Assembly (NCBI RefSeq): GCF_963921235.1
Contig: NC_086097.1
Span: 33,234,001 to 33,298,000 of the forward strand
Length of the DNA stretch: 64,000 bases
Origin: Mobula hypostoma
Taxonomy: Eukaryota
Direction: 5' to 3'
Shown piece after piece: positions 5,831-62,895 of this stretch; within the stretch, counting starts at the first letter, position 1, and each line of letters opens with the position of its first letter. The notes beneath the pieces were generated by a model. It was not told where the DNA came from, did no database searches, and saw only the letters and a program-made list of their open reading frames with translations. A program made the translations under genes and the position numbers.

Positions 5831-5886
5831 TGGAGTTACTAATTTGAATGAGGGAATGTTACAATACATGATGAAGTTCTTGGATA

Positions 5887-13378: not shown

Positions 13379-13614
13379 AACAGCTGTTGCTTTCATATAG
13401 ACAAGAGAGTGTGCAGATGCTGAAAGTCTGGAGCAATACACAAAGGAACTGGAGGAGCTCAATGTGTCAAACAGGGAAACGGACAGATGAAGGGTCTCAG
13501 CGCAAAATATTGATTCCAAATGAGAGAAAATCTGCAGATGCTGGAAATCCGAGCAAAACACACAAAATGCTGGAGGAACTCAGCAGGCCAGGCGGCATCT
13601 ATGGAAAAGAGTAC

Positions 13615-13650
13615 AGTTGACGTTTCAGGCCGAAACCCTCCAGCAGAACT
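13615..13650 (-). ncRNA. Hammerhead variant (CUGC core), degenerate
   Basis: AGUU CUGCUGG A GGGU UUCG GCCU GAAACGUC AACU. Confidence 0.5.
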
Positions 13651-14617
13651 GGAGAAAAAAAATCTGAGGTGTAGATTTAAAAGGTGGGGGAGGAGAGAGA
13701 GGAACACAAGTTGATAGGTGGAACCTGAAGGGGGAAGGATGAAGTAAAGAGCTGGGACGTTGATTAGTGAAAGAGACAGAAGGCAATGGAAGTAAGAAAA
13801 GGGGTGGAGCTCTAGAGGGAGGCGATGGGTGGGCAAGGAGATAAGGTGAGAGAGGGAAAACGGGATGGGAAATTGTGAAGGAGAGGAGGGGTGGGGGGCA
13901 TCACCGGAAGTTTGAGAAATTAATGTCCAAGCCATCAGGCTTGAGGCTCCCAAAGCAGAATATAAGGTGTTGCTCCTCCAACCTAAGTGTGGCCTCATCA
14001 CGACAGTATCGGAATGAGAATGGGAAGTAGAATTAAAATGGATGGCCATTTGGAGATCCTGCTTTTTCTGGTGGAGCGTAGGTGCTTAGCGAAGTGGTCC
14101 CCCAAACTACGTCGAGTTTCACTGATAAACAGGAAGCCACATCAGGAGCACCGGACACAGTATATGATCTCAACAGTCTCACAGTCTCACCTGGAAGGAC
14201 TGTTTAGGGCCCTGAATGGTACTAAGTGTTACGCCTGCCCCCTACACCTCCTCCCTCGCTACTGTCATGATGAGACCACACTTAGGTTGGAGGAGCAACA
14301 CCTTATATTCCGTTTTGGTAGCCTCAAGCCTGATGGCATGAGCATCAATTTCTCAAACTTCAGTGATGCCCCCCACCCCTCTCTTCTTCACCATTTCCCA
14401 TCGCCTTTTCCCTCTCTCACTTTATCTCGTTGCCTACCCATCTCCTGCTTCTGGTGCTCCTTCCCCCTGTTCTTTCTTCCATGGCCTTTTGTCTCTTTCA
14501 CCAATCAACTTCCCAGCTCTTTACTTAATCCCGCCCCCTTCTAATTTCACCTATCACTTTGTGTTTCTCTCTCCCCACCTTCCACCTTTTAAATCTACTC
14601 CTCGGCTTTTTTTTTCC

Positions 14618-14653
14618 AGTCCTGCCGAAGGGTTTCGGCCCGAAACATCGACT
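14618..14653 (+). ncRNA. Hammerhead variant with A6C core
   Basis: AGUC CUGCCGA A GGGU UUCG GCCC GAAACAUC GACU. Confidence 0.6.
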
Positions 14654-15166
14654 GCACTCTTTTCCATAGATGCTGCCTGGCCTGCTGAGTTCCTCCAGCA
14701 TCTTGTGTGTGTTGCCCACATTTTTGATTGTCCATTCCCCTCCACAGATGCTACTTGATGTGCTGAGTTCCTCCAGCTCCTTTGTGGGTTGCACTGATTT
14801 TGTGGCCCTTGTGGTTTCAAGTTCCATTTGAACTGCTACAAAGCAGGCTATCCTATCAGAAAGCCAGGGCAAAGATCCAGTCCAGACCATGTACAGAAGT
14901 ACCAGCCCTTTCATTTCAACCATTGGTATCCGGTGGTTCAGCTGAGATTTCAGGACTTTGCTTCAGCTTTTACAGTATTTACTGTAATGTGGCCATACAA
15001 TTTTTTATTCAAATAATTGATAGGTGATAATATTCTCATGTTGTTTGGAACATAAGTTCCTCATCATGTGATTCATTGTCACTGGCTCCCTAATAAGTGC
15101 GTCAGCAAGAAATGTCCCATTCATTTCCTCTCTTCCCCCATAGCCCAAATTCACTGCTGGTTCATG

Positions 15167-18208: not shown

Positions 18209-18768
18209 TTAAAAGTCTCTATCTCTTAAAAAAAAGAGTCCAGATTATTTATTCAATTGAACTTAATTTTGTAGTTGCCCTGTAGTATGTGTGTTTGTGT
18301 GTGTAGAGCTGCATGTATGTGTAACTGAAACATAGAGGAACCTTCACAAACTCCCACAGTCCCCAATGGCCCTACGATTTCAGTCTCTGAGGCCGACATG
18401 AAAACATCTTTCAGGAGGGTGATCTCATGGAAAGCATTCAGCCCAGATGGGATACCTAGCGGAGTACTAAAGACCTTTGCTGATCAACTGGCTTGAGTGT
18501 TCACTGCTATCTTTAACCACTTGCTTCAGCAGTCTGAGGTACCTACCTGCTTCAAGCAGGCTTCAATTGTATCGGTGCCTAAGAAGAATATACAAGTATA
18601 AGAGCACTTACATCCACTGTGATGAAGTGCCTTGAGAGTTTGCTGAAACATATCAACTCCTGCCTGAGAAGCGACTTGGGTCCACTCTAATTTGCCAACT
18701 GCCACAACAGGTTCACAGCAGATGCCATTTCATTTAACCCTGGAAAATCTGGACAGCAAAGATACATA

Positions 18769-18893
18769 GCAACACACATAAAAGTTGCTGGTGAACGCAG
18801 CAGGCTAGGCAGCATCTGGCCTGCTGTGTTCACCAGCAACTTTTATGTGTGTTGCTTGAAATTCCAGCATCTGTAGATTTCCTCATGTTTGCG
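18769..18893. mobile_element. 125-bp fold-back PLE mini-insertion
   Basis: Hairpin 18769-18855 plus PLE tail; exact 14-bp TSD AGCAAAGATACATA (18755-18768, 18894-18907). Confidence 0.9.
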
Positions 18894-19184
18894 AGCAAAG
18901 ATACATACATCAGGATGCTCTTCATCGACTATAGCTTGGCATCCAATACTATAATCTCCTCAAAACTAATCAATAAGCTTCAGGACCTTAGCCTCAATAC
19001 CTCTTTGTGCAATTGGATCCTCGATTTTCTCTTGTGCAAACTTCAGTCAGTTCGGATTGGCAACAGCATCTCATCTACCAACTCCATCAGCTTAGGTGGA
19101 CCACAAGATTGTGTGCTTGGTCCTTTGCTCTACTCACTTTATACTTATGACTGTGAGGCTTAGAACAGCTGACGGTTCTTAATC

Positions 19185-20850
19185 AATACTTTGCTTTAGT
19201 ATTCACTATGGAAAATGACCTTGGCGATTGTAGGGATGACTTGCAGCGATCTGAAAAGCTTGACCATGTAGACATTAAGAAAGGATGCGCTGGAGCTTTT
19301 GGAAAGCATCAAGTTGGATAATTCACCAGGACCGGACAAGATATACCCCGGGCTATGGTGGGAGATGAGGGACGAGATTTCTGAGCCTCTGATAATGATC
19401 TTTGCATCATCAGTGGGGACGGGAGAGGTTCTGGAGGATTGGAGTGTTGTGGATGTTGTTCCCTTATTCAAGAAAGGGAGTAGAGATAGCCCAGGAAATT
19501 ATAGATCAGTGCGTCTTACTTCAGTGGTTGGTAAGTTGATGGAGAAGATCCTGAGAGGCAGATTTATGAACATTTGGAGAGGCATAATATGATTAGGAAT
19601 AGCCAGCATGGCTTTGTCAAAGGCAGGTCGTGCCTGACGAGCCTGATTGAATTTTTTGAGGATGTGACTAAACACATTGATGAAGGTAGAGCAATAGATG
19701 TAGTGTATGTGGATTTCAGCAAGGCACTTGAGTAAGGTACCCCATGCAAGGCTTATTGAGAAAGTAAGGAGGCATGGAATCCAAGGAGACCTTGCTTTGT
19801 GGATCCAGAATTGGCTTGCTCACAGAAAGCAAAGAGTGGTTGTAGACAGGTCATATTCTGCATGGAGGTTGGTGACCAGTGGTGTGTCTCAGGGATCTGT
19901 TCTGGGACCCCTACTCTTTGTGATTTTTATAAATGACCTGGATGAGGAAGTGGAGGGATGGGTTAGTAAATTTGCTGATGACACAAAGGTTGGGGGCGTT
20001 ATGGATAGTGTGGAATGATGTCAGAGGTTACAACGGGACATTGATAGGATGCAAAACTGGGCTGAGAAGTGGCAGATGGAGTTCAACCCAGATAAGTGTT
20101 AGATGGTTCATTTTGCTAGGTCAAATATGATGGCAGAATATAGTATTAATGGTAAGAATCTTGGCCTTGTGGAGAATCAGAGGGATCTTGGGGTCCGAGT
20201 CCATAGGACACTCAAGGCTGCTGCACAGGTTGACTGTGTGATTAAGAAGGCATACGATGTATTGGCCTTCATCAATTGTGGGATTGAGTTTAAGAGCCAA
20301 GAGGTAATGTTGCAGCTATATAGGTCAGATCCCACTTGGAGTACTGATCAGTTCAGGTCACCTCACTACAAGAAAGATGTGGAAACTATAGAAAGGGTGC
20401 AGAGGTGATTTACAAGGATGTTGTCTGGATTGGAGAGCATGCCTTATGAGAATAGGTTTAGTGAACTCGGCCTTTTCTCCTTGGAGCAATGGAGGATGAG
20501 AGGTGACCTGATAGAGGTGTATAAGGTGAAGAGAGGTATTGATCGTGTGAATAGTCAGAGGCTTTTTCCCCAGGGCTGAAATGGCTAACATGAGAGGGCA
20601 CAGTTTTAAGGTGTTTGGAAGTAGGTAGAGGAGATGTCAGGGGTAAGTTTTATATGCCGGGAGTGGTGAGTGCACGTAATGGGCTCTTATAAGAGCCCAT
20701 CTCTTATAAGAGATTCCTGGATAGGTACATGGACCTCAGAAAAATAGAGGGCTATTTGTAACCCTAGGTAATTTCTAAAGTAAGTACATGTTGGGCACAT
20801 CATTGTGGCCTAAGGGCCTGTATTGTGCTGTTGGTTTTCTATGTTTCTAT
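19185..20850 (+). mobile_element. CR1 LINE, 5'-truncated (RT + 3' UTR)
   Basis: [32 protein letters not shown]; ttctatgtttctatg tail. Confidence 0.95.
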
Positions 20851-21804
20851 GACAATACCACTGTCGTTGGCCGAATCAAAGGTGGTGATGAATCAGCATA
20901 CAAGGGTTGAGATTGAAAATCTGGCTGAGTGGTGCCACAACAATAAATGTCAGCAAGACCAAAAAACTGATTATTGAGTTCAGGAGGAGGAAACCGAAGA
21001 TCCATGGGCCAGTCCTCATCGGGGGAATCAAAGGGTCAGCAACTTTAAATTCTCGGTTTTATCATTTCAGTGGATTTGTCCTGGGTCCAGCATTATGAAG
21101 AAAGCATGGTAGCATCTACTTCCTTAGAAGTTTGTGAAGACTCGTTATGACATCTAAAACTTTGACAAACTTCTATAAGTGTGTGGTGGAGAATATATTG
21201 ACTGGATGCCTGGTATGGAAACACCAATGCTCTTTAATGAAAAATCCTACAGAAAGGAGTGGATACAGGCCGGTCTATCACGGGTAAAGCCTTCCCTACC
21301 ATTGAGCATATGTACACAGAGTGCTGCCACAGGAAAGTAGAATCCATCATCAGGGGCTGCAGCCCTCCAGGTCATGCTCTGTTATTGCTGCTGCCATCAG
21401 AAAGAAGGTATAGAAGCCTCAGGACGCACAGCAGCCCTTTCAAGAACAGTAATTGCTCCTCAGCCATCAGGCTTTTGAACCAGTGGGGATAACTTCACTC
21501 ATCATCACTTGCCCCATCATGAACTATTCCCACAACCTATGGACTTCCGAGGACTCTTCATCTCATTTTCTCGATATTTATTGCTTATTTTATTATTATT
21601 ATTACTTTTTTTCTTTCTCTTGTGTTTGCACAGTTGTTTTTTGCACACTTGTTGTCTGCCCTGTCGGTGCTGTCTTTTGTATTTCTTGCATTTACTTTTT
21701 ATGCCCCAAAGAAAATGAATCTTATGTTTGTATATGGTGACATGCAGTATATATACTTTGATAATAAATTTACTTTGAACTTTAAACTTTTGACCTTTGA
21801 AATC

Positions 21805-29189: not shown

Positions 29190-29710
29190 CTGAAACTCCC
29201 AATGCAGGGACAGTATGGATTAGATATCAATTAAATGTCCAATATTGTACCTTCAGACATTCTCAGAGTAGGGATAGTATGGGAAAGATACGGAGTAAAT
29301 GTTAACACTGTACCTTCACACATACCTAAAGCAGGGACGGTATGCGTTAGATACCAAGTAAATATTAAATACTATACTTACCCACACTCCCATGGCAAAG
29401 ACAGTATGGGTTAGATACTGAGCAAGTGTCCAACACTACCTTCACACACTCCCAGGACAGGGGCAGCATGGGTTAGATACAGAATTAAATGTTAGTTTGT
29501 ACCTACCTACACTATCAGGGCAGGGACAGTATAAGTTAGGTATTGAGTAAATGTCCAACAGTGTACTTTCACACACTCCATGGACAAGGACAGTATGGAT
29601 CAGATACTGAGTAAATCCTGAATACTGTACCTCAAACTCTTCTAGAGCTGAGACAGTATAGGTTAGATATTGAGTAAAAGTTCAACAGTGTATCTTCCCA
29701 CACTACCAAG
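29190..29710. repeat. Degenerate ~62-bp tandem repeat, ~8 units
   Basis: Unit approximately cacactcccagggcagggacagtatgggttagatactgagtaaatgtccaacactgtaccttca; continues briefly after 30513. Confidence 0.9.
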
Positions 29711-30512
29711 CAATGTTCTCTCTAAGGTACACACACACACACATCTTTTGCTACTAGTGGACAAAGGAATTTAAACTGCGCACAAAAGGTTGTCATCTTC
29801 TACCTCGTTAGCATGTTAAGTATATTTCACGATCGTACACAATCACATTTCTTTTTCCAGTTTCTGATGCAGATTGTGTTGACAAGGGGGAGTTTGCGAT
29901 GATTTGTCTGCAAGTTTTAGAAATAGCTTATTTATACTGTTTTATTGTAGGAAGTATTGATTAACTATGTCAAATTCCAAAGAAGCAAAGGGTGTGAAGC
30001 ACAAAAGAACTGCTAGTTCATTTAAAGCAGAATGGCTTAATGAAACGGTAGAAACTGTTGCACTGAAAGCTCATGAGGTCAGGAACATGCAGCTACGAGA
30101 AATATTTATGTACAATACAGAAATTGGTGTTACTTGCGTGTATTGTCGCGATGCAAAAGTTGCCGGAGAATTTGCAAGTGGCAAGAAGTGGAGTGATAAT
30201 TGGAAACTTGACTTTTTAAAGCATCATTTAGCAAGCAAATTACATATGGACAGTTGCAAAAGCTCCGCAAAAAAATCCTTCATTACCCATTACAAGTGTG
30301 CCTCTTATGTTTTGTGAGAGTGCAGATGAACAAGAGCAGAAACATTCAAACCCAGAGGAGATCAAAGTTCTTATTGATAGTGTTTTGCTGATGTTAAAAT
30401 GAATACCTCTATATATAAAATTCAGTGCACCCATGTTGTTGTCACTAGGCAAAAAATTGCACAGCACAAGATTTTTGTGCATACTGGTCATTACAAGTTA
30501 GAGGTTACATTG
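29711..30512 (+). mobile_element. Internally deleted hAT DNA transposon
   Basis: Imperfect 15-bp TIRs CAATGTTCTCTCTAA / TTAGAGGTTACATTG; exact 8-bp TSD CTACCAAG (29703-29710, 30513-30520). Confidence 0.9.
29967..30317 (+). pseudogene. hAT transposase N-terminal zinc-finger remnant
   Basis: FKAEWL...CVYC...LKHHLASKLH, a TTF/BED-like CxxC...HxxxxxH pattern; truncated. Confidence 0.7.
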
Positions 30513-32011: not shown

Positions 32012-32615
32012 CTGTACGTCACAGAAGGCAGATTTTTCCAGTGGCCACTAATTTTAATTCTAATTCCAATTCCCATTTCAACATGTCAGTCCATGGACTC
32101 CACTATTGCCATGATGAGGTCACTGTCAGGTTGGAGGAGTAACACCTTATATTTTGTCTGAGTAGCCTCCAACCTAAGGGCATGAACATTAATTTCTCAA
32201 ACTTCTGGTTAACTGGTCCCTCCTCCACCTTCTCTCTTTTTCCATTCTCCATTCTGATTCTCCTCTCACCCCTTCTCCTCATGCGTCCATCACCTCTCTC
32301 TGGCATGCTCCTCCTTCCCTTGGTAGAATCTCCTTTCCTACTTCTTCAGCCCTTTACCTTTTCTACATATTACTTCCCAGCTTCTCACTTCGTCCTCCCT
32401 CTCACACCCACCCACCTTCCCCCTCACCTGGTCTCACCTGCCCCTCTTCCCAATTTTTGAACTTCTTCCCCTCTTACCAATTTTTGCTTCTGACTTCTGC
32501 CCCCTCCCTTCCTTTCCAGTCCTGATGAAAGATCTTGACCCTAAATGTTGAATGGTTATTCATCCACATAGATGCTGCCTGACCTACTGAGTTCTTCCAG
32601 CAATTGTGTGTGTTT
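32012..32615 (+). mobile_element. PLE 3' end with degenerate hammerhead (~32518-32553)
   Basis: GIY-YIG C-terminal remnant; exact 13-bp TSD CAGTGAGATAGAA (31999-32011, 32616-32628). Confidence 0.9.
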
Positions 32616-35400: not shown

Positions 35401-36371
35401 TACTAGGACTGTGGCCAATTGCCTCTTTTTAGCTTGGTGGTGGTGGTGGGGGGGGGGGTGTTGGTGTGGGGGGTGATTAAAGTTGTTCACATTGCCCTAT
35501 GAGGCAGTCATTTGTTCAAGGCGTTGTACATGTGGTCTGTATAGCAGGAGACTTCTTTATTTTCCAAATCATTCGAGCATAAGATTAGTTTATCATCAGT
35601 TACACTAGGGTGCAATGAAATTTCCTGTTCTCATAAAGCTCACAGAGTAAACAGTGCATCTGGTAATAATAAATGCAGCGAAAACTTAAGAAAACAGCAG
35701 ATTGGTGCAAAAATTGTAATTCAATCTGCAGTAGAACAACAAAACAATTCCAAAGTGACAATAGCAGAGTAACCAAGGGAGGGAGAATTCAGAGTATGAG
35801 AATGAGGCAGCACCATTGAAAGAAGTGACTGGTTCAGAAGTCTGCAGCCGGTGGGGGAGAAGCTGTTCTTGAGTTTGGTCATCTGGGCTTTCAAGCCTCC
35901 TATGTCTTCCCCCAGAGGTTAGAGGAGAGTTAAGGAAATGGCCAGGGCAGCAAGTGCCTTGACAATATCACTAGTCTTTCTGAAGCAACACAACAGAGAA
36001 CAATACAGCATAGTTACAGTGTCCCATTATGTCTGTGCCAACCGTGATGTCAATCTAAACTAATTTGGGGATGGAGAAGATGTTACCAATAGTGAGGGAG
36101 TCTAGGATCAGAAGGCACAGCCTCAGAAAAGAAGGATGTCCCTTTAGAACAGAAATCAGGAGGAATTTCTGTAGCCGGAGTGATGAATCTCTTTAATTCA
36201 TTGCCACAGACAGCTGTGGAAGCCAAGTCATTGGGTATACAGTGCCTATAAAAACTATTCACCCCCTTGGAAGTTTTCATGATTTATTATTTTACAACAT
36301 TGAATCACAGTGGATTTAATTTGACTTTTTTGACGCTGATCAACAAAAAAAAGCCTCTCTTGTGTCAAAAT

Positions 36372-36511
36372 GACTAGTCCTGACGAAGGGTCTCGGCCTG
36401 AAACGTCGACTGCACCTCTTCCTGGAGATGCTGCCTGGCCTGCCGCGTTCACCAGCAACTTTGATGTGTGTTGCTTGAATTTCCAGCATCTGCAGAATTC
36501 CTGTTGTTTGC
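36372..36511 (+). mobile_element. ~140-bp PLE terminal module starting at the hammerhead
   Basis: Near-identical to 62758-62895; inserted in the Tc1 left end. Confidence 0.9.
36376..36411 (+). ncRNA. Minimal type I hammerhead ribozyme, intact
   Basis: AGUC CUGACGA A GGGU CUCG GCCU GAAACGUC GACU: stem I AGUC/GACU, 4-bp stem II, palindromic ACGU, GUC triplet. Confidence 0.85.
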
Positions 36512-36580
36512 ATTTAAAACACAAGATAATTGATTGCATAAGTATTCACCACCCTTTAATAATACTCACTGGTGCAGCCA

Positions 36581-37150
36581 CGAGGAAATCTGCAGATGCT
36601 GGAAATTCAAACAACATACACAAAAAATGCTGGTGAACGCAGCAGGCCAGGCAGCATCTATAGGAAGAGGTACAGTCGACATTTCGGGCCGGGACCCTTT
36701 GTCAGGACTAATTGAAAGAAGAGATAGTAAGAGATTTAAAAGTGGGAGGGGGAGGGGGAGATCTGAAATGATAGGAGATGACAGGAGGGGGGGGTGGATC
36801 TAAGAGCTGGAGAAGGGAGAGCATCATGGGACGGGAAGCCTGGGGAGAAAGAGAAGGGGGGAGGGGAGCCCGGAGGGTGGAGAGCAGACAAGAAGTTATA
36901 GTGAGAGGGACAGAGGGAGAAAAAAGAGAGAGAGAAAAAGGGGGAAATAAAAAATATATTAAAAATATATTAAATAAATAAGGGATGGGGTGTGAAGGGA
37001 AGAAGGGGCATTAACGGAAGTTAGAAAAGTCAATATTCATGCCATCAGGGTGGAGGCTACCGAGACGGAATATAAGGTGTTGTTCCTCCAACCTGAGTGT
37101 GGCTTCATTTTGACAGTAGAGGAAGCCGTGGATGGACATATCAGAATGGA
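36581..37150 (-). mobile_element. PLE 3' end with hammerhead (36674-36709, G8>A)
   Basis: 11-bp TSD TGGTGCAGCCA (36570-36580, 37151-37161); GIY-YIG C-terminal remnant. Confidence 0.9.
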
Positions 37151-37313
37151 TGGTGCAGCCAATGGGTTTTAGAAGTCACATAATTACTTAAGTGGAGATC
37201 TGTTTTTGGAGACCTGTGTGTAGTTAAGGGTTTTCAATTGATTGTAGTAAAAATACATGGGTATCTGCAAGATCCAACTGCTGATGATTCAGTATCCTGG
37301 CAAAAACTACATC

Positions 37314-38325
37314 ATGAAGACAAAATAACACTCCAAGCAACTCCGCAAAAAGACTATAGAAAAGCACATATCAGGAGATGGATGCAAGAAAATTTCCAAG
37401 TCAGTGAATATCTCTTGGAATACAGTTGTCAATCATCAAGAAATGGAAAGAGCATAGCACAGCTGTAAATCTGCCTAGAGCAGACTGTCCTCAAAAACTG
37501 AGTGACCGTGCAAGAAGAAGACTGATGAGTGAAGCCACCAAGAGACCTATGACAACTCTGGAGGAGTTACAAGCTTCAATGGCTGAGATGAGCAAAGCTG
37601 TGTGTACAACAGCTGTTGTTGTCCGGGTGCTTCACCAGTTGCAACTCTATGGGAGAATGGCAAAGAGAAAGCCACTGTTGAAAAAAACACATGAATTTTG
37701 GCTAGAGTTTGTCAGAAGCATGTGGGAGGCTCTGAAGTCAGTTGGAAGAATGTTCTATTGTCTGATGAAACCAAAATTGAGCTTTTTGGCCATCAGACTA
37801 ATGCTATGTTTGGCAGAAGCCAAACACCACGCATCATCAAAAACACACCATCCCTACCGTGAAGCATGGTGGTGGCTGCATCATGCTCTGGGGATGCTTC
37901 ACTGCTGAAGGCCCTGGAAGGCTTGTGAAGGTAGAGGGTAAAATGAATGCAACAAAATACAGACGAATTCTGGAGGAAAACCTGATGCAGTCTGCAAGAG
38001 AATTGCAACTTGGGAGATTTGTTTCCAGCAAGACAATGACCCCAAGCATAAAGCCAAAGCTACATGGGAATGACTTTAAAATAACCAAATTAACGTCCTG
38101 GAGAGGCCAAATCAGAGTCCAGACTTCAATCCAATTGAGAATTTGTGGCTGGATTTGAAAAGGGCTGTTCACTCATGATCACCATGCAATCTGACAGAGC
38201 TTGAGCAGTTTTGTAAAGAAGAATGGGGAAAAATTGCAGTGTCCAGATGTGCAAAGCTGATAGAGACCTATCCACACAGACTCAAGGCTATAACTGCTGC
38301 CAAAAGTGCATCTATTAAATACTGA
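37314..38325 (+). pseudogene. Tc1 DD34E transposase, frameshifted
   Basis: [58 protein letters not shown]. Confidence 0.95.
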
Positions 38326-39160
38326 CTTGAAAGGGGTAAATACAGTACTAATGCAATCAATTATTTTGTGTTCTATATTTGTAATTCACTTAGAGCACTT
38401 TGTAGAGATCTGTTTTCACTTTGACAGAAGTCTTTTTCTGTTGATCAATGTCAAAAAAGTCAAATTAAATACACTGTGATCCAATGTTGCAGAACAAAAA
38501 ATCATGAAAACTTCAAAGGGGGTGGGGTGAATGCTTTTTGTAGGCAGTGTATTTAAAGTGGAGGGTGATATGTTGTTGATTAGTGGGGGGGGGGTTAAAG
38601 GCTATGATGAGAAGGCAGAAGAATGGGTTTGAGAGGAATAATAAATCAGTCATGATCGAATAGCACAGCATGCTCAATTGACCAAATGACCTAATTTTGC
38701 TCTTACGTCTTATGGTCTTATCTGCCTGCATATGATCCTTATCCTTCCATTCCCTGCCTGTTTCTGATTACACCCAAAGGCCTCGTAAATTTTGCTATCA
38801 TGTCAGCTTCCACTATTGAGGAGAGTGAGATATTAGCAAGTAATATTAAAGCTAGTGATCGGGAATCTCTCCTCTCAACCTCAGGATGATGGTGCCATTT
38901 TATTATTATTTGAGTGTTTAGAGCAGTCACGTAGTGAATTTTGTAGGCTGGTACCATTAGAGTCAGAGCAATACAGTATGAATACAGGCCTTTCAAGTCT
39001 ATGCCAATCATGAAGCCCACCCACTAAGTTCCAATTTCCTGCATTAGGCCTCACCCCTCCATGAAGCTGTCCAAGTGCTTCCTAAATGATACTATCGTAG
39101 CTGCCTCAATCTGTTTCTCTGGCAGCCCATTCCATATACTCACCACCCTCTGCATGTAAA

Positions 39161-39489: not shown

Positions 39490-40989
39490 GAAAAAGTTAC
39501 CCTTCAGGACCCTTTTAAATCTTTCTGCTCTCAGCTTAAACTTTTGCCCCGTAATTTTGGACTCCCGTACCTTGGGGAAAAGACTGTTAACATCAATCTA
39601 TGTATTTTTCTCATTAATTTAATCATTTTTATAAGGTCACCCCTCTTCCTCTTATGTTCCAAGGAATAAAGACCTGGGCTAGCCAACCTCTCCCTATATC
39701 TGAGGCCCTCTAATCCTGGCAACATTCTCGTATAACTTTTCTGCACTCTTTCCAGTTTAAAAAACATTTTTCCTGTAACAGAATGACCAAAGCTGTTCAC
39801 AATACTCCATGTGCAGTCCCACCAATAACGTACACAACTGTATCCAACATAATAACCCAACTCTTATACTCTGTGCCCTGACTAATGAAGGCCAGTGTGC
39901 AAAATGTTTTTTTCACCACCCTGCCTACCTGCAAAGCCACTCTTAAATGAAATATGCATTTGTACTCCTAGGACCCACTGTTCCATTACAGCTCACTAAG
40001 TACTGTACCATTCATAATACAAGTGCTGCGCTGGATGGACTTTCAGAATCAGAATCAGGTTTATTATCACCGGCATGTGAAGTGAAATTTGTTAACTTAG
40101 TAGCAGCAGTTCAGTGCAATATATAGTCTAGCAGAGAAAAAAAAAATAACAATAATAAATAAACAAGTAATTCAATTACAGTATACAGTACACATATTGA
40201 ATAGATTAAAAAACATGCAAAATCAAAAATACTGTATATTAAAAAAAGTGAGGTAGTGTCCAAAAATTCGATGTCTATTCAGGAATTAGGTGGCAGAGGG
40301 GAAGAAGCTGTTCCTGAATCGCTGAGTGTGTGCCTTCAGGCTTCTGTACCTCCTACCTGACGGTAACAGTGAGAAAAGGGCATGCCCTGGGTGCTGGACA
40401 TCCTTAATAATGGACGCTGCCTTGCTAAGACATCACTCCCTGAGGATGTCCTGAATACTTTGTAGGCTAGTGCCCAAAATGGAGCTGACTAGATCTACAA
40501 CCTTTTGCAGCTACTTTCAGACTTGTGCAGTAGCCCCTCCATACCAGACAGTGATGCAGCCTGTCAGAATGCTGCCCATGGTACAACTGTAGAAGTTCAT
40601 GAGTGTATTTGTTGGCATGCCAAATCTCTTCAAATTCCTAATAAAGTATAGCCATTGTTTTGCCTTCGTTATAACTACATCGATATGTTGGGACCAGGTT
40701 AGATCCTCAGAGATCTTGACACCCAGGAACTTGAAACTGCTCACGCTCTCCACTTCTGAACCCTCTATGAGGATTGGTATGTGTTCCTTCGTCTTACCCT
40801 TCCTGAAGTCCACAATCAGCTCATTGGTCTTACTGACGTTGAGTGCCAGGTTGTTGCTGCGGCACCATTCCACTAGTTGGCATATCTCACTCAAACACGA
40901 GAAAATCTGCAGATGCTGGAAATTCAAGCAACACACACAAAATGCTGGTGGAACGCTGCAGGCAAGGCAGCATCTATAGGAAGAAGTAC

Positions 40990-41025
40990 AGTCAAAGTTT
41001 CGGGCCGACACCTTTCGTCAGGACT
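40990..41025 (-). ncRNA. Hammerhead motif, partly decayed
   Basis: AGUC CUGACGA A AGGU GUCG GCCC GAAACUUU GACU. Confidence 0.6.
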
Positions 41026-41983
41026 AACTGAAAGAAGAGATAGTAAGAGATTTGAAAGTGGGAGGGGAGGGGGAGATCCGAAATGATAGGAGAAGACAGG
41101 AGAGGGAGGGAAGAAGGTCAGAGCTGGAAAGTTGATTGGCAAAAGAGATACAGAGTTGGAGAAGGGGGAGGATCATGGGACAGGTGGCCTAAGGAGAAAG
41201 AAAGGGAGAGGGGAGCCCAGAGGAAGATGGAGAGTAGGCAGGGAGTGATTGTGAGAGGGACAGAGAGAGGAAAAAAAGGGGGGGAATAAAAATCAATAAG
41301 GGATGGGGTAAGAAGGGGAGGAGGGGCATTAACGGAAGTTAGAGAAATCAATGTTCACACCATCAGGTTGGAGGCTACCCAGATGGAATATAAGGTGTTG
41401 TTCCTCCAACCTGAGTGTGGCTTCATCTTGACAGTAGAGGAGGCCATGGACTGACATATCAGAATGGGAATGGGACATGGAATTAAAATGTGTGGCCACT
41501 GGGAGATTCTGCTTTCTCTGGCGGACAGAGCGTAGGTGTTCAGCGAAACTGTCTCCCAGTCTGCGTCGGGTCTCACCAATATATAGAAACCCACATTGGA
41601 CGCAGTATATCACACCAGCCGACTCACAGGTGAAGTGTTGCCTCACCTGGAAGGACTGTCTGGGGCCCTGAATGGTGGTGAGGGAGGAAGTGTAAGGGCA
41701 TGTGTAGCACTTGTTCTGCTTACAAGGATAAGTGCCAGGAGGGAGATCAGTGGGGAGGGATCGGGGGGACGAATGAACAAGGAAGTCGGATAGGGAGCGA
41801 TCCCTGCAGAAAGCAGAAAGAGTGGGGGAGGAAAGATGTGCTTGGTGGTGGGATCCCGTTGGAGGTGGTGGAAGTTACGGAGAATTATATGTTGGACTCG
41901 GAGGCTGATGGGGTGGTAGGTGAGGACATGGAGAACCCTATCCCAAGTGGGGTGGCGGGAGAATGGGATGAGAGCAGATGTGT

Positions 41984-43870
41984 GACTTCACCACACCTTG
42001 TTGCAATTCCAACCTCACTCCTTCCGAACGCTCTGCTCTCTACTCCCTCTGCACCAATCCTAACCTTACTATAAAACCTGCTGATAAGGGGGGTGCTGTT
42101 GTTGTCTGGCGTACTGACCTCTACCTTGCCGAGGCACAGTGACAGCTTGCTGGTACCTCCTCTTATTTACCATTCAATCATGACCCCACTAAGAAGCACC
42201 AGGCTATTGTCTCCCACACCATCACCAACCTTATCAGCTCTGGGGATCTCCCATCCACTGCCACCAACCTCATAGTTCCCACACCTCACACTTCCCGTTT
42301 CTACCTCCTACCCACGATCCACAAACCTGCCTGTCCAGGTAGACACGTTGTCTCAGCTTGCTCCTGCCCCACCGAACTCATTTCTGCATACCTCAACACT
42401 GTTTTATCCCCCCTTGTTCAATTCCTTCCCACCTATGTTCGTGACACTTCTCACACTCTGAATTTTTTCGATGATTTTAAGGTCCCTGGCTCCCACCGCC
42501 TTATTTTCACCATGGATGTCCAGTCCCTATATACCTCCATCCCCCACCAGGAAGATCTCAAAGCTCTCCGCTTTTTGGATTCCAGACCTAACCAGTTCCC
42601 CTCTACCACCACTGTCCTCCATCTAGCGGAATTGGTCCTTACTCTTAATAATTTTTCCTTTGGCTCCTCCCACTTCCTCCAAACTAAAGGTGTAGCTATG
42701 GGCACCTTGTATGGGTCCTAGCTATGCCTGCCTTTTTGTTGGGTTTGTGGAACAATCTATGTTCCAAACCTATTCTGGTATCTGTCCCCCACTTTTCCTT
42801 CGCTACATCGACGATTGCATTGGTGCTGCTTCCTGCACGCATGTTGAGCTCGTTGACATCATTAACTTTGCCTCCAACTTTCACCCTGCCCTCAAGTTTA
42901 CCTGGTCCATTTCCGACACCTCCCTCCCCTTTCTTGATTTTTCTGTCTCTATTTCTGGAGACAGCTTATCTACTGATGTCTACTATAAGCCTCCTGACTC
43001 TCACAGCTACCTGGACTATTCCTCTTCTCACCCTGTCTCTTGCAAAAATGCCATCCCCTTTTCGCAATTCCTCCATCTCTGCTGCATCTGCTCTCAGGAT
43101 GAGGCTTTTCATTCCAGGGCGAGGGAGATGTCCTCCTTTTTTAAAGAAAGGGGCTTCCCTTCCTCCACAATCAACTCTGCTCTCAAACGCACCTCTCCCA
43201 TTTCACGCACATCTGCTTTCACCCCATCCTCCCACCACCCCACTTGGGATAGGGTTCCCCTTGTCCTTACCGACCACCCCACCAGCCTCCAGGTCCAACA
43301 TATAGTTCTCCGTAACTTCCACCCTCCAACGGGATCCCACCACCAAGCACATCTTTCCCTCCCCCCCTTTCTGCTTTCCGCAGGGATTGCTCCCTACACG
43401 ACTCCCTTGTCCATTCATTCCCCCCCGCCATCCCTTCCCACCAATCTCCCTCCCAGCACTTAACCTGTTAAGTGGAACAAGTGCTACTCCTGCCCTTACA
43501 CTTCCTCCCTCATCACCATTCAGGGCCCCAAACAGTCCTTCCAGGTGAGCGACACTTCACCTGTGAGTCAGCTGGTGTGATATACTGTGTCCAGTGCGCC
43601 CGGTGTGGCCTTCTATATATTGGTGAGACTCGACACAGACTGGGAGAGCGTTTTGCTGAACACCTGCTCTCTATCCACCAGAGAAAGCAGGATCTCCCAG
43701 TGGCCACACATTTTAATTCCACGTCCCATTCCCATTCTGATATGTCAGTCCACGGCCTCCTCTACTGTCAAGATGAAGCCACACTCAGGTTGGAGGAACA
43801 ACACCTTATATTCCATCTGGGTAGCCTTCAACCTGATGGCATGAACATTGATTTCTCTAACTTCCGTTAA
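41984..43870 (+). pseudogene. PLE reverse transcriptase + GIY-YIG endonuclease, frameshifted
   Basis: KPADKGG, FYLLP.IHK, MDVQSLYTSIPH, GVAMG, RYIDD, LPFLD, VIYCVQCARCGLLYIGET, RFAEH. Confidence 0.95.
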
Positions 43871-44168
43871 TGCCCCTCCTCCCCTTCTCACCCCATTCCT
43901 TATTTATTTTTATTTCCCCCCCTTTTATTTTCCTTCTCTCTCTGTCCCTCTCACAGTTACTCCTTCCTGCTCTCCATCTTCCTCTAGGCTCCCCTCCCCC
44001 TTTCTTTCTCCGTAGGCCACCTGTCCCATGATCCTCCCCCTTCTCCAATTCTGTATCCCTTTTACCAATCAACTTTCCAGCTCTTAGCTTCTTCCCTCCC
44101 CCTCCTGTCATTTCGGATCTCCCCCTCCCCTCCCACTTTAAAATCTTATACTATCTCTTCTTTCAGTT

Positions 44169-44204
44169 AGTCCTGACGAAGGGTCTTGGCCCGAAACATT
44201 GACT
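44169..44204 (+). ncRNA. Minimal type I hammerhead ribozyme
   Basis: AGUC CUGACGA A GGGU CUUG GCCC GAAACAUU GACU. Confidence 0.75.
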
Positions 44205-44787
44205 GTACTTCTTCCTACAGATGCTGCCTGGCCTGCTGCTTTCCACCAGCATTTTGTGTGTGTTGCTGGCATATCTCACTCCTGTATGCCCCCTCGTCAC
44301 CACCTGAGATTCTACCAACAATGGTTGTATCGTCAACAAATTTATAGATGGTATTTGAGCCATGCCTAGCCACACAGTCATCTGTATATAAAGAGTAAAG
44401 CAGTGGGCTAAGCACACATCCCTGAGGTGTTGATTGTCAGTAAGGAGGATATGTTATCACCAATCCGCACAGATTGTGGTCTTCTGGTTAGGAAATGCAC
44501 CACCAAAATGTACCACCTCAAATTTAACTGTATTGAAATCCATTTGCCACTCCTCAGTCCACTTCTCTAACTAATCAGGATACCCCTGTAATCTACAATA
44601 ACCTTCTTTACTATCAGCAACACCTTCTAATTTTGTGGCATCTGCAAACTTACTGATCAAGTCTTGTGCATTTGCAAAATCCCATTTATATAAATAATGA
44701 ATAGTAAAGGTCCTGCGGCACATCACTAGTTACCAGCCCCTGCTTCCTACCTTTTAGATGAGTGTAGATGCTGTTGCTTATTTGCTC

Positions 44788-45627
44788 TGCCCATGTGATC
44801 ACTCCTGAGAGACCGCGTTAGAACTGGAGCTGCAGCTCGATGACCTTCGTCTGGCCAGGGAGAGTGAAGAGGTGATAGAGAGGAGCTATAGGCAGGTAGT
44901 CACCCCGGGACCACAGGAGACAGATAAGTGGGTAACAGTCAGGAGAGGGAAGGGCAGGAGTCAGATGCTGGAGAGTACCCCTGTGGCTGTCCCCCTTAAC
45001 AATAAGAGCTCCTGCTTGAGTACTGTTGGGACGGCTTACCTGGGGGAAGCAATAGTAGTCATGTCTCTGGCACAGGGTCTGGCCCTGTGGCTCAGAAGGG
45101 TAGGAAAAGGAAGAGGATGGCAGCAGTGATAGGGGACTCTATAAGTTAGGGGGTCAGATAGGCAATTCTGTGGATGCAAGAAAGAAACGCGGATGGTAGT
45201 TTGCCTCCCAGGTGCCAGGGTCCAGGATGTTTCTGATTGCGTCCACGATACCTTGATGTGGGAAGGAGAACAGCCAGAGATCGTGGTACATATTGGTACC
45301 AATGCCATAGGTAGGAAAAGGGAGGAGGTCCTGAAAACAGACTACAGGGAGTTAGGAAAGAAGCTGAGAAGCAGGACCTCAAAGGTAGTAATCTCAGGAT
45401 TACTGCCTATGCCACGTAACAGTGAGTATAGGAATAGAATGAGGCGGAGGATAAATGCATGGCTGAGGGATTGGAGCAGGGGGCAGGGATTCAGATTTCT
45501 GGATCATTGGGACATCTTCTGGGGCAGGTGTGACCTGTACAAAGTGGACGGGTTGCACTTGAATCTGAGGGGCACCAATATCCTGGCGGGAAAGTTTGCT
45601 AAGGCTATTGGGGAGATTTTAAACTAG
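44788..45627 (+). pseudogene. CR1 ORF1 with SGNH/GDSL esterase domain
   Basis: VIGDS, CLPGA, VVHIGTN and DGLHL blocks. Confidence 0.85.
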
Positions 45628-48600
45628 AATTGCTGGGGGGTGGGAATGGAACTGAAGTGACGGAGGAAAGGGAGGTTGGCTCACAAATAGAGAAAGCTTG
45701 GAGACAGTGCGAAAGGTAGGATAGACAGGTGACAGAGAAAGGACGCACTCAGACCGATGGTTTGAGATGTACCTATTTTAATGCGAGGAGTATTATGAAT
45801 AAAGTGGATGAGCTTAGAGCGTGGATCAGCACTTGGATCTATCATATTGTGGCCATTACAGAGACTTAGATGGTGCAGGGGCAGGAATGGTTACTTCGAG
45901 TGCCAGGCTTTAGATGTTCCAGAAAGGATAGGGAGGGAGGCAAAAGAGGTGGGGGTGTGGCACTGTTGATCAAAGATAATGTCACGGCTGCAGAAAAGGA
46001 GGAAGGCATGAAGGGGTTGTCTATGGAGTCTCTGTGGGTGGAAGTTAGGAATAGGAAGGGGTCAATATCTCTACTGGATGATCTTTATAGACCACCCAAT
46101 AGTAATAGGGACATTGGGGAGCAGATAGGAAGACAGATTGTGCAAAGGTATAATAATAACAGGGTTGTTGTGTTGGGAGATTTTTATTTCCCACCACAAC
46201 AACCCTGATTGGCATCTCCCTGGACAAAGGGGTTTAGATGGGGTGGAGTTTGTTAGGTGTGTTCTTGACACAGTATGTAGATGAGCCTACACGAGGAGAG
46301 GCTGTACTTGATCTAGTATTGGGAAATGAACCTGGTCAGGTGTCAGGTCTTTCAGTGGGAGAACATTTTGGAGATAGTGATCACAATTCTATTTCCTTTA
46401 TCATAGCATTGGAGAGGGATAGGAACAGACAAGTTAGGGAAACATTTAAATGGAGTAAGGGGAAATGTGAGGCTATCAGGCAGGAACTTGGAAGCATAGA
46501 TTGGAAACATATTCTCAGGGAAACGTACGGAAGAAATGTGGCAAATGTTCAGGGGATATTTGCGTGGTTTCTGAGTAGGTACGTTCCAGTGAGACATGGA
46601 AAGAATGGTAGGGTTCAAGATCCATGGTGTACAAAGGCTGTTGTAAATCTAATCAAGAAGAAAAGAAGAGCTTATGAAAAGTTCAAAAAACTAGGTAATG
46701 ATAGAGATCTAGAAGATTATAAGTCTAGCAGGAAGGAGCTTAAGAATGAAATTACGAGAGCCAGAAGGGGCCATGAGAAGGCCTTGGCGGACAGGATTAA
46801 GGAAAACCCCAAGGCATTCTACAAGTATGTGAAGAGCAAGAGGATAAGATGTGAGAGAATTGGACAAATCAAGTGTGACAGTAGAATAGTGTGTGTGGAA
46901 CCGGAGGAAATAGCAGAGGAACTTAATGAATACTTTGCTTCAGTATTCACTATGGAAAAGGATTTTGGCGATTGTAGGGATGACTGAAAAGCTTGAGCAT
47001 GTAGATATTAAGGAAGAGGGTGTGCTGGAGCTTTTTGAAAGCATCAAGTTGGATAAGTCGCTGGGATCGAACGGGATGTACCCCAGGCTACTGTGGGAAG
47101 CAAGGGAGGAGATTGCTGAGCCTCTGGCAATGATCTTTGCATCATCAATGAGAACGGGAGAGGTTCTGTTGCAGATGTTGTTCCCTTATTCAAGAAAGGG
47201 AGTAGGTACAGCCCAGGAAATTATATGTCAGTGAGTCTTACTTCAGTGGTTGGTAAGTTGATGGAGAAGATCCTGAGAGGCAAGAATTATGAACTTTTGG
47301 AGAGGCATAATATGATTAGGAATAGTCAGCATGGCTTTGTCAAAGGCAGGTCGTGCCTTACAAGACTGATTGAATTTTTTGAAGATGTGACCAAACACAT
47401 TGATGAAGGTAGAGCCGTAGATGTAGCGTATATGGATTTCAGCAAGGCATTTGATATGGTACCCCATGCAAGGCTTATTGAGAAAGTAAGGAGGCATGAG
47501 ATCCAAGGGGACATTGCATTGTGGATCCAGAACTGGCTTGCCCACAGAAGGCAAAGAGTGGTTGTAGACAGGTCATATTCTGCATGGAGGCCAGTGACCA
47601 ATGGTGTGCCTCAGGGATCTGTTCTGGGACCCCTACTCTTTGTGATTTTTATATGTCTATGACCTGGATGAGGAAGTGGAGGGATGGGTTAGTAAATGTG
47701 CTGATGACACAAAGGTTGGGGGTGTTGTGGATAGTGTGGAGGGCTGTCAGAGGTTACAGCGGGACATTGATAGGATGCAAGATTGGACTGAGACGTGGCA
47801 GATGGAGTTCAACCCAGATGTGTGTGGTGGTTCATTTTGGTAGGTCAAATATGATGGCAGAATATAGCATTAATGGTAAGACTCTTGGCAATGTGGAGGA
47901 TCAGAGGGATCTTGGGGTTTGAGTCCACAGAACACTCAAAGCTGCTACACAGGTTGACTCTGTGGTTAAGAAGACATACGGTGCATTGGCCTTCATCAAT
48001 CATGGCACTGAGTTTAAGAGCTGAGAGGTAATGTTGCAGCTATATAGGACCATGGTGAGACCCCACTTGGATTACTGTGCTCAGTTCTGTTTGCCTCACT
48101 ACAGGAAGGACGTGGAAACCATAGAAAGGGTGCAGAGGAGATTTACAAGGATGTTGCCTGGATTGGGAAGTATGCCTTATGAGAATAGGTAGAGTGAACT
48201 CGGCCTTTTCTCCTTGGAGCGACGGAGGATGAGAGGTGACCTGATAGAGGTGTACAAGATAATGAGAGGCATTGATCGTGTGGATAGTCAGAGGCTTTTC
48301 CCCAGGGCTAAAGTGGCTAGCACGAGGAGGCATAGTTTTAAGGTGCTTGGAAGCAGGTACAGAGGAGACGCCAGGGGTAAGTTTATTACACAGAGAGTGG
48401 TGAGTATGTAGAATGGGCTGCCGGCGGCAGAGGTGGAAGCGATGGTGTCTTTTAAGGGACTCCTGGATGGCTACATGGAGCTTAGAAAAATAGAGGGCTA
48501 TGGATAAAGCCTAGGTAGTTCTAAGGTAGGGACATGTTCGGCACAGCTTTGTGGGCCGAAGGGCCTGTATTGTGCTGCAGGTTTTCTATGTTTCTATGTT
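44788..48600 (+). mobile_element. Near-full-length CR1 LINE (ORF1 + ORF2), disrupted
   Basis: ORF1 coiled-coil and esterase, then APE and RT motifs; ttctatgtttctatgtt tail. Same family as 5887-8725 and 19185-20850. Confidence 0.95.
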
Positions 48601-49419: not shown

Positions 49420-49620
49420 TACACAATGCGCTAGAGGAGCTCAGCAGGTCAGGCAGCGTCTGTGGATGGGAATAAACAGTAGATGTTTTGGGCAAAGACC
49501 CTTAATTCTGAGGAAGAGTCTCAGCCCAAAACGTCAGCTGTTTATTCCCATCCATAGATGCTGCCTGACCTGCTGAGCTCCTCCAGCATTTTGTGTATAT
49601 TGCTGTAGATTTCCAGCAAT
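49420..49620. mobile_element. Fold-back PLE mini-element turning within the hammerhead
   Basis: ~49429-49503 is the reverse complement of ~49516-49588; degenerate hammerhead halves at the centre. Confidence 0.8.
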
Positions 49621-49803: not shown

Positions 49804-49987
49804 AACACAAAATAATCTTCAGATGCTGGGGTCAAAGCAACACTCACAACACGCTGGAGGAGCTCAGCAGGTCGGGCAGCATCAGTGGAAAAGATTGATC
49901 GACGTTTCGGGCCAGAACCCTTCGTCAGTCCTGATCTTTTCCACTGGTGCTGCCCGACCTGCTGAGTTCCTCCAGCGTGTTGTGAGT
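49804..49987. mobile_element. 184-bp fold-back PLE mini-element with a hammerhead core in its loop
   Basis: Arms 49841-49895 and 49933-49988; exact 13-bp TSD GTGGTATATTAGG (49791-49803, 49988-50000). Confidence 0.9.
49897..49932 (-). ncRNA. Hammerhead core, with the stem I 5' strand rearranged
   Basis: agga CUGACGA A GGGU UCUG GCCC GAAACGUC gauc. Confidence 0.65.
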
Positions 49988-52901: not shown

Positions 52902-53052
52902 AACAGCACACACAAAATGCTGGAGGAACTCAGCAGGTCAGACAGCATCTATAGAGAGGAATAAGGGGTCAATATTTCAGGCTGAGGCCCCTCATCAGGA
53001 CTGGAAAGGAAGGGAAAAGAAGGCAGAATAAGAAGGTAGGGGGTGGAGACAG
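52902..53052 (-). mobile_element. Short PLE terminal insertion with hammerhead motif (52967-53002)
   Basis: Minus strand AGUC CUGAUGA GGGGC CUCA GCCU GAAAUAUU GACC; flanked by TTTTACAGA direct repeats. Confidence 0.75.
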
Positions 53053-60000: not shown

Positions 60001-60196
60001 CAAACGCGAGGACGTCCCATTCCCATTCTGATATGTTTATCCACGGCCTCCTCTACTGTAAAGATGAAGCCACACTCAAGTTGGAGGAACAACACCTTAT
60101 ATTCTGTCCGGGTAGCCTCCAACCTGATGGCATGAACATTGACTTCTCTAACTTCCGTTAATGCCCCATCTCCCCCTCGTACCCCATCCGTTATTT

Positions 60197-60239
<43 letters not shown>

Positions 60240-60571
60240 TCTTTTTCTCTCTCTCTCCCTCTCACCCTCTCACTATACTCCTTGCCTCTGGGCTTCCCCC
60301 CTCCTCCTTTCTTTCTCCCCAGGCCTTCCGTCCCATGATCCGTTCGTGTCCCTTTTGCCAATCAACTGTCCAGCTCTTGGCTGCATCCCTCCCCCTCCTG
60401 TCTTCTCCTATCATTTTGGATCTCCCTCTCCCCCTCCTACTTTCAAATCTCTTACTAGCTTTTCTTTCAGTTAGTCCTGACAAAGGGTCTCAGCCCGAAA
60501 CGTTGACTGTACCTCTTCCTAGAGATGCTGCCTGGCCTGCTGCGTTCCCCAGCAACTTTTATGTGTGTTGC
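60001..60571 (+). mobile_element. PLE 3' end with hammerhead (60473-60508, G8>A), preceded by 12 nt of inverted tail
   Basis: caaacgcgagga followed by a GIY-YIG C-terminal remnant; contains (TA)n(TG)n; ends gtgtgttgc. Confidence 0.85.
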
Positions 60572-61099
60572 GAGGTACAATACGCTGTTTGAACAATCTA
60601 AGTGCTGGCCCAGATAGACTGGAATGCAGGGTGCTGGGTGAGGTTGGGTTGCTCTGAGCACCAAGTCGATTTGGACAGGTCGAGAACAGCTTCTCCGGCA
60701 GCGAAATCTAGGCCCAGACTGATTCGCCGCAGCAGGACTGGGTCCTAGTGTGAGGTTTGGTCAATTTAAACACTGGTCCAGATAGCCTGGGGGCTCCTCT
60801 CTCCATGATGCTAAGGCTGTGAGACTGCCCTGGCTGCTGTGCTTCATGTCTGCGAACACTGCGGCAATTTGCCCCGCTAACATGATGAACTGAATACCGA
60901 GGCTTTGGGCTGCTCCAGGGATCTGGATCAATGTGGTTTGGAATGCTCTTCTTGTTCTCACTTCTATTGTTTGCATGATTTGTTTTGTAATTTTTTTCTC
61001 TTTCTCTGTGGGCACAGGGGCTTGGTCTTTTTATATTTTAAATGGGTTTTTTCGGGTTCCTTGCTCTGCTACTGCCTGGAAGCAAACAAGTTTCAAGTT

Positions 61100-61194
61100 C
61101 CACACACAAAATGCTGGAGGAACTCCGCAGGCCAGGGAGTATCTATGGAAAAGAGTACAGTCGACGTTTTGGGCCAAGACCCTTCGGCAGGACT
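61100..61194 (-). mobile_element. PLE terminal module with A6C hammerhead (61159-61194)
   Basis: Minus strand AGUC CUGCCGA A GGGU CUUG GCCC AAAACGUC GACU. Confidence 0.75.
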
Positions 61195-61259
61195 CTGAAT
61201 TTCAGGTTGTATAACTTATACATTCTTTGATAATAAATGCACTTTGAATCTAGTTTAGT

Positions 61260-62532: not shown

Positions 62533-62895
62533 TCTCCCTCTGTCCCTCTGAATATACCTCTTGCCCATCCTCTGGGTCACCCCGTCCCCTCCTTGTCTTT
62601 CTTCCCAGACCTCCTGTCCCATGATCCTCTCGTATCCCCTTTTGCCTATCACCTGTCCAGCTCTCGGCTTTATCCCTCCCCCTCCTGTCTTCTCCTATCA
62701 TTTTGGATCTCCCCCTCCCCCTCCAACTTTCAAATTCCTTACTCACTCTTCCTTCAGTTAGTCCTGACGAAGGGTCTCGGCCTGAAACGTCGACTGCACC
62801 TCTTCCTACAGATGCTGCTTGGCCTGCTGCGTTCACCAGCAACTTTGATGTATGTTGCTTGAATTTCCAGCATCTGCAGAATTCCTGTTGTTTGC
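62533..62895 (+). mobile_element. PLE terminal repeat inserted in a Rex1/Babar remnant
   Basis: CT-rich 3' UTR, hammerhead and full tail. Confidence 0.9.
62760..62795 (+). ncRNA. Minimal type I hammerhead ribozyme, intact
   Basis: Identical 36-mer to 36376-36411. Confidence 0.85.

Follow-up and report, generated by a model that had tools for sequence, protein, structure and literature searches.

A stretch of 64,000 nucleotides of the Mobula hypostoma genome (the window) contains, on both strands, copies of a 36 nt motif which resembles a hammerhead ribozyme. The questions raised by this locus are whether these motifs are ribozymes, which element carries them and what they may cut. The motif belongs to an already described kind, the minimal hammerheads of Penelope-like elements (PLEs) published in 2014 by Cervera and De la Peña (PMC4209133). 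According to the reading we prefer, to which we assign a probability of about 85%, it is a minimal hammerhead in the pseudo-LTR (pLTR) of a highly amplified PLE, likely evolved to cut the element's own tandem transcript, either as a dimer or assisted by a protein, and the dispersed copies are likely passengers.

The structure may be described on the copy found at 36376-36411 (+). Stem I is formed by AGUC (5' strand, 36376-36379) and GACU (3' strand, 36408-36411). The core CUGACGA (36380-36386) is followed by an unpaired A after A9 (36387) and by stem II, GGGU/GCCU (36388-36391/36396-36399), with a CUCG loop and a G-U wobble as its 10.1-11.1 pair. Then come GAA (36400-36402), the palindrome ACGU (36403-36406) and C17 (36407). 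The predicted cut falls after C36407, and an earlier note on this DNA, which expected cleavage after the GUC ending at 36407, had placed it correctly.

An ungapped scan of the window has detected 18 copies with at most 10 mismatches, including all 15 listed in that note (the one given as 868 is really at 869-904). The note's own pattern, with up to three mismatches, matches the window 11 times and 100 shuffled sequences not once. A profile search raises the number of motif-spanning copies to 21, about one per 3 kb, roughly twice the genome average of about one per 6.8 kb. Among the copies absent from the earlier list are a decayed one at 49504-49539 (+), found by both scans, and other decayed ones at approximately 690 (+), 24277 (-), 58388 (-) and 58717 (+). 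The core is intact in 8 of the 21 copies, five of which also have the palindromic stem III seed; four also keep full stems I and II (2075-, 36376+, 52967- and 62760+). Those at 36376 and 62760 have the hammerhead core CUGANGA ... GAAA ... UH. Both scans also find the copy at 869-904 (-), with an intact core and a lost palindrome, and an old decayed copy at 32518-32553 (+). The copy at 49897-49932 (-) belongs to a divergent subfamily: its core is intact and its stem I is broken at a fold-back junction. The one at 52967-53002 (-) is old and still passes the descriptor, with an AUAU palindrome and U at position 17. The variation in loop II described before does exist, but CUUG and CUCA derive from CUCG by C>T and G>A decay of its CpG; most loop II variants are CpG decay.

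Each motif copy in the window is the 3' end of one repeat family. The copy at 36376 lies in a 5'-truncated PLE insertion of 135 bp (36375-36509, +), 97% identical to the full-length copy in locus L052. This insertion begins a single base ahead of the hammerhead, and its 3' end is of the long (tail-bearing) type. Tail-to-tail with it is a separate, older PLE 3' fragment (36583-37149, -), whose motif (36674-36709) has lost G8 and the palindrome; if RNA reads through both, this fragment should pair with 36375-36502. The insertion target of both fragments is a Tc1/mariner-like DNA transposon relic (36240-38549, +; HTH_Tnp_Tc3_2, E 7.5e-11), with a transposase remnant at 37408-38155, which is no part of the ribozyme. 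Both insertions are nested in the left arm of this relic, and the one at 36375 appears to have deleted about 40 bp of that arm, judging by the right end.

The longest PLE copy in the window (41984-44275, +) is 87% identical to L052 over 2323 columns. It contains broken reverse transcriptase (RT) and GIY-YIG frames and a 3' UTR, followed by a short 3' end; its motif (44169-44204) has lost the palindrome. Its inverted, 5'-truncated partner (40893-41981, -) has a motif at 40990-41025 and a long 3' end. A head-to-head fold-back at 1977-2275 (both strands) combines a long arm with an intact motif (2075-2110, -) and a short arm with a G12-mutant motif (2178-2213, +), and an older head-to-head pair at 13525-14713 has decayed motifs (13615-13650, -; 14618-14653, +). 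Other copies are a young 5'-truncated one (62533-62893, +) with an intact motif at 62760-62795, a 3' fragment (60012-60569, +) whose motif (60473-60508) has lost G8, and a short fragment (61092-61199, -) with a decayed motif (61159-61194). We have also observed that the young fold-back at 1977-2275 interrupts an older, divergent PLE body (1465-3977, -), with 41-74% amino acid identity to the protein P0001 described below: a PLE inside a PLE.

A genome search with an RT fragment gave 123,936 first-look candidates, 149 of which were scored. Five of the 18 loci fetched for long frames (L051, L052 and L054-L056) contain full-length elements, which carry the same 36-mer as 36376 at both ends, 3512-3522 bp apart. 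In two of the five, 1043 codons remain open between the pLTR and the end of the endonuclease (EN). Counted from the first ATG, the protein (P0001) has 1016 amino acids, in a frame coding for RT plus GIY-YIG, with the motifs DKG (421), YIDD (662), a CX4CxxC linker (883) and GVIYC-x2-C...YIG (919). Pfam gives RVT_1 (E 2e-5) and GIY-YIG (E 0.0023), both below the curated cut-off. The linker, CKRNKCYTC, fits the CX2-5CxxC found between RT and EN; a motif of this type precedes YxG in 27 of 29 aligned proteins, a count in which the regular expression may also include EN cysteines. The hammerhead lies about 300 nt after the stop codon of this frame, and in the 3.5-kb partial tandems a second copy lies about 170 nt ahead of the frame start. 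The features of a canonical EN+ PLE are present: a single ORF with RT and a C-terminal two-cysteine GIY-YIG, and DKG, as well as pLTR partial tandems, inverted 5'-truncated partners and a 30-40 bp tail in the family. Judged by its linker and motifs, the element falls under the definition of a canonical EN+ PLE of the Neptune/Nematis type given by Craig et al. 2021 (PMC8557442); no named reference proteins appear among the hits. Among named homologues, the closest comes from the shark Chiloscyllium punctatum, with 72% identity over 73% of the region.

Some loci contain further arrangements of the motif. In L056 it forms a short direct tandem (5464 and 5577, 113 bp apart), and L184, from a divergent family, has a 192-bp spacer between the ORF end and the motif. 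Close direct tandems like these are the copies most able to form dimers. In L052, a pyrimidine tract ending in CAG (7075-7037, minus strand) is found just before stem I; it looks like a splice acceptor and, according to predictions, would prevent folding by base pairing to the core. In the Penelope of Drosophila virilis the end of an intron likewise precedes stem I (PMC4209133). We have discarded a splicing switch: We found the ORF end joined to the motif in only three genomic copies, without a clean intron loss in any, and 20 loci starting at position 0 have no shared upstream exon.

We have compared the motif with 80 metagenome loci which encode related PLEs (34-62% identity). The pairing descriptor finds 16 sense and 2 antisense motifs in them and none in 20 Markov controls, and a search for the core only gives 33 matches, 30 of them on the sense strand. 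When the full 3' flank is available (26 loci), the core appears 100-151 nt after the frame in 12 cases and is not found in the flank in the other 14. Among 27 distinct core-only matches, in which pairing was not demanded, 64 of the 81 stem I cells pair (shuffled mean 35, maximum 50 in 10,000 shuffles). In 15 aligned rows picked by the descriptor, which biases the percentage paired, the covariation score is 0.77 vs 0.21, and 9 of 11 pairs change on both sides. The palindrome is ACGU in 14 of these rows and AGCU in one; in the related PLE L218:126, AGCU replaces ACGU, a compensated change in the dimer seed. The 10.1-11.1 pair is G-C in 13 of the 15 rows, and G-U in 36376. Covariation in helices I and II is slight within this genome and strong across the relatives. 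Related PLEs of other animals thus share the core and compensated stems, and therefore the structure is real and kept in the source elements. An Rfam scan gave no hammerhead family among its 16 matches at E<=1, so the hammerhead assignment rests on the descriptor and covariation. The full-length elements, the descriptor matches in relatives and the aligned rows all agree with what the earlier note had proposed, a minimal type I hammerhead in Penelope-like termini. We consider the identity of the motif, a minimal hammerhead in a Neptune/Nematis-type PLE, as secure.

Within the genome, decay of the motif looks neutral and driven by CpG mutation. We have analyzed 172 copies, which were required to span the motif, a choice that favours conservation there. 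G12 is not the majority base in 39% of them, by the same CpG decay; the share is 35% at 15.2, 37% at 16.2 and 37% at C17. It averages about 12% in non-CpG core columns, about 11% in a downstream block from +51 to +82 (three subfamily columns excluded) and about 33% in linker and upstream columns. The A at 9.1 is present in 162 copies. When 143 copies are divided into seven clusters, differences are found in none of the 8 stem I and 10 non-CpG core columns, compared with 11 of the 20 upstream columns and 12 of the 14 in the linker. The conservation in excess of the flanks which had been anticipated is thus found with respect to upstream and linker columns, core and stem I being fixed across subfamilies, but not with respect to the downstream block. 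Since this block is equally conserved, conservation of the core alone does not single out catalysis.

The scale is the outstanding feature of this system: more than 70,000 near-intact copies of a known PLE hammerhead motif. A search of the 3.48 Gb with a strict pattern of 31 nt gave 71,093 exact matches, versus none in the control. To estimate relics, we have used 120 stretches of 10 kb, hand-picked at round coordinates of the larger contigs and not random, which contain 176 motif-spanning copies in 1.2 Mb, one per 6.8 kb. Extrapolation gives about 0.5 million relics in the genome (bootstrap 0.42-0.60 million). The core is intact in 38 of 171 copies sampled; 26 of these keep the palindrome as well, and 18 both the palindrome and full stems. 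Nearly every insertion carries one motif because the copies are 5'-truncated 3' ends. Published counts, obtained with other search methods, are about 9,000 minimal hammerheads in Xenopus tropicalis and about 4,000 in coelacanth (PMC4209133). In axolotl, 14,255 retrozymes have been published, also counted in a different way.

As to the function of the motif, we favour with moderate confidence a role in processing the element's own RNA. Selection would act on source elements only. In a pLTR-ORF-pLTR transcript, ACGU would allow pairing between the two motifs, separated by 3.5 kb, with a cut after GUC; alternatively, two RNAs held by a protein dimer would pair and cut in the same way. The motif is predicted to misfold, alone or in its native context: The monomer would form a rod in which the core pairs with GUCG. 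A chaperone would therefore be needed, for example the element's protein, as in the Anolis element, whose hammerhead cut only with the element's protein (PMC11167929). Published minimal hammerheads are described as inactive as monomers and weak as dimers (PMC4209133); dimer cleavage is due to Lünse et al., as cited in a review. The youngest subfamily argues against processing: It has G-U instead of G-C at 10.1-11.1 in 22 of 30 copies, and its stems have a predicted probability of at most 0.04 with at least 20 native upstream bases. The dispersed copies would be passengers, most of them decayed, above all at the CpG positions of the core.

We think it possible, if rather doubtful, that cleavage is dispensable and that the motif persists as a hitch-hiker or as a structural signal for protein binding, transcript start or RT pausing. 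The distribution of 5' ends suggests this. We have found 1231 copies starting at position 0, the class of the copy at 36375, 1450 at +5 and 266 at -4; starts at 0 and +5 are 4.6-5.5 times commoner than at -4, with the reservation that older subfamilies can match the +5 pattern too. The accumulation of ends is stronger at the 5' edge of the hammerhead than at the cut site, and this edge could mark a transcript start or an RT stop. The weakened stem II of the youngest family points in the same direction, and so do the ribozyme mutants of the Anolis element, whose insertion in vitro is reported as unaffected, with no reads ending at the cut site (PMC11167929). Naiad PLEs are reported to amplify without canonical hammerheads (PMC8557442). 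On the other hand, all catalytic residues and the palindrome are held across families which share no stem sequence, the pattern of a catalytic constraint, and L218 has exchanged one palindrome for another. Processing of the element's own RNA is the explanation we prefer.

Copies starting at the cut site itself are relevant to this question. There are 445 of them, versus 189 at +35, 79 at +31 and 389 at +37, the latter a low figure as its pattern is longer than the others. Divided by the chance that two flanking bases fit the pattern, the values are 1187, 504, 316 and 692, a 2-4-fold excess at the cut site. When 12 of these loci were inspected, 11 were inversion junctions, most with GA/GAC/GACT microhomology. 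The cut site falls in the middle of the palindrome GTCGAC; by hand count, the first 50 fold-backs include 10 that turn there, compared with 5 at ACGT and 2 at the next palindrome. As a proof of cleavage this footprint is confounded, and we have rejected it: Microhomology at the palindrome can explain the excess.

The 3' ends fall in two groups, near +97 and +134, about 37 nt apart. Together with the inverted partners, they match the tail signature of PLEs. We have analyzed 30 fold-back loci, chosen by junction patterns and not by 3' end: Exactly one arm is long (tail-bearing) in all 30, and the other ends near +97 (22 cases) or earlier (8 cases). In a previous set of junction-adjacent pairs there was one tail-bearing arm in 9 of 10, plus one long-long case. 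At +50, the two arms have the same allele in 20 of 21 cases (shuffled mean 8.8). This suggests a single template, and is compatible both with twin priming by a dimer and with snap-back copying of the first cDNA. One-tailed fold-backs have been seen at L271-L317 and, in the window, at 1977-2275, 18768-18890 and 40893-44275. Turning points favour short palindromes and microhomologies. A bolder proposal would be that a single protein dimer produced each fold-back by priming on both target strands, at the two RT start sites of the same RNA, that the excess at GUC|GACU is a record of germ-line cleavage, and that this genome has one of the largest loads of ribozyme motifs among vertebrates. We consider it speculative and rather unlikely. 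If true, half a million insertions would be a fossil record of the PLE reaction, and hammerheads would cleave in the germ line, for which the literature compared here contains no published in vivo demonstration in a PLE.

The earlier note also inferred that the copies at 36376 and 62760 are catalytically competent, so that a host transcript crossing the region could cleave itself, with roughly one motif per 4 kb. This proposal, in which dispersed intact copies pair through ACGU and cut host pre-mRNAs, can claim some support: Intact cores persist in about 70,000 copies, stems I and II of 36376 form with a probability of about 0.63-0.81 when only 60 nt of flank are included, and 5' truncation removes the upstream bases predicted to inhibit folding. 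The context of these copies speaks against it. Only 4 of the 21 window copies are intact, just two of the four have a GUC triplet, and these two are 26 kb apart; 36376 has no closer intact partner on its strand. None of 24 intact sampled copies has an intact partner on the same strand within 1 kb, while 6 have a copy on the opposite strand. RNA from 36360-36720 is predicted to form a hairpin with the inverted copy at 36674 (-233.9 kcal/mol, z -23.7) in which 36376 is fully paired, and the probability of its stems falls to 0.0 once this neighbour is included; these are equilibrium predictions, and the polymerase would transcribe about 170 nt between 36376 and its complement. The stems of 62760 have a probability of about 0.002 in their own context, where misfolding is predicted. 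To this we should add the ACGU duplex, with a contribution of only some -2 to -3 kcal/mol, and the weak dimers already mentioned. Furthermore, no host exon was found in 126 frames scanned against Pfam, which gave only transposon-type domains; the scan covered 113 + 13 of the 218 frames of at least 75 amino acids, and short exons and non-coding transcripts fall outside its reach. The claim is not sustained: A long hairpin is predicted to trap the copy at 36376, which would seldom cleave host transcripts; we regard cleavage of host RNA at this locus as unlikely, and we would give no better odds to dispersed copies as cutters of pre-mRNAs. Rfam matches to microRNAs at 2105-2183, 49863-49965 and 36460-36627 are below the gathering score and reflect inverted repeats. 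Finally, a chance resemblance of the repeat to the hammerhead consensus, compatible with the lack of an Rfam hammerhead match and with a 36-mer that folds no better than shuffled sequences (z -0.37), has a negligible probability and is refuted by covariation, as distant relatives show the same core, position, strand and compensated stems.

The system can be compared with published ones. The minimal hammerheads of PMC4209133, reported from Xena, Poseidon and Neptune elements of fishes, share type I topology without helix III, a palindromic 15.2-16.2, an unpaired base between 9 and 10.1, a helix I of 4-5 bp and location in the pLTR, mostly as single truncated copies, with some opposite-strand pairs within 100-700 bp, as here. 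The differences are a helix II of 4 bp, G-U at 10.1-11.1 in the youngest family, and the 71,093 strict matches, compared with about 9,000 and 4,000 by other search methods. PAc, a Poseidon element of Anolis carolinensis (PMC11167929), also has pLTR-ORF-pLTR tandems, a hammerhead in the pLTR, two RT start sites giving an optional tail and an AT-rich target; protein-assisted cleavage is a model there too. Its ORF starts inside stem II, while here about 170 nt run from the start of the motif to the first ATG, and the CX2-5CxxC linker present here is described as absent from Penelope/Poseidon. Neptune/Nematis elements (PMC8557442) share RT followed by GIY-YIG with internal cysteines, DKG, the CX2-5CxxC linker, 5' truncation, partial tandems and an adjoining inverted copy. 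Their 30-40 bp tail is often at one end only, which is nearly absolute here (30/30 plus 9/10). Non-LTR retrozymes (Li et al. 2026, bioRxiv 10.64898/2026.07.22.740005), reported in one chondrichthyan, have type I hammerheads related to those of PLE pLTRs, but they are short tandem arrays; we have discarded this identity, as tandem arrays of the motif are absent from the window, whose copies are truncated ends aligning to the PLE 3' end.

In our literature search we have found no report of a PLE hammerhead in cartilaginous fishes, which the supplements (the 2014 Cervera alignments and the 2026 preprint tables) may list. The passages of PMC4209133 considered here do not name these fishes, and the main text of a preprint on ray genomes mentions neither Penelope nor ribozymes.

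The copy at 36376 is itself ordinary, the kind of motif and the host element having been published. The value is in the family as material: an apparently young element with unbroken 1016 amino acid frames and tens of thousands of near-identical ribozyme motifs. Its numbers give statistical power to two questions, that of in vivo cutting by PLE hammerheads and that of the origin of inverted insertions with one tail. Host RNA, given about half a million copies lying in both orientations, is more likely to be affected by long double-stranded hairpins, such as 36375-36710, than by cleavage. Inverted Alu pairs are a comparable case.

Other repeats are also found in the window. CR1-like LINE copies are present at 44809-48600, 5886-8846 and 19174-20851. 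Region 45145-45624 encodes an SGNH/GDSL esterase-like domain (E 1.5e-10); such domains occur in some LINE ORF1 proteins. Frame 29961-30317, with a weak match to zf-C17orf113 (E 0.003), is probably a fragment of a hAT-type transposase. Close to it, a tandem array at 29195-29708 contains about 8 copies of a 64-bp unit, with 67% identity.
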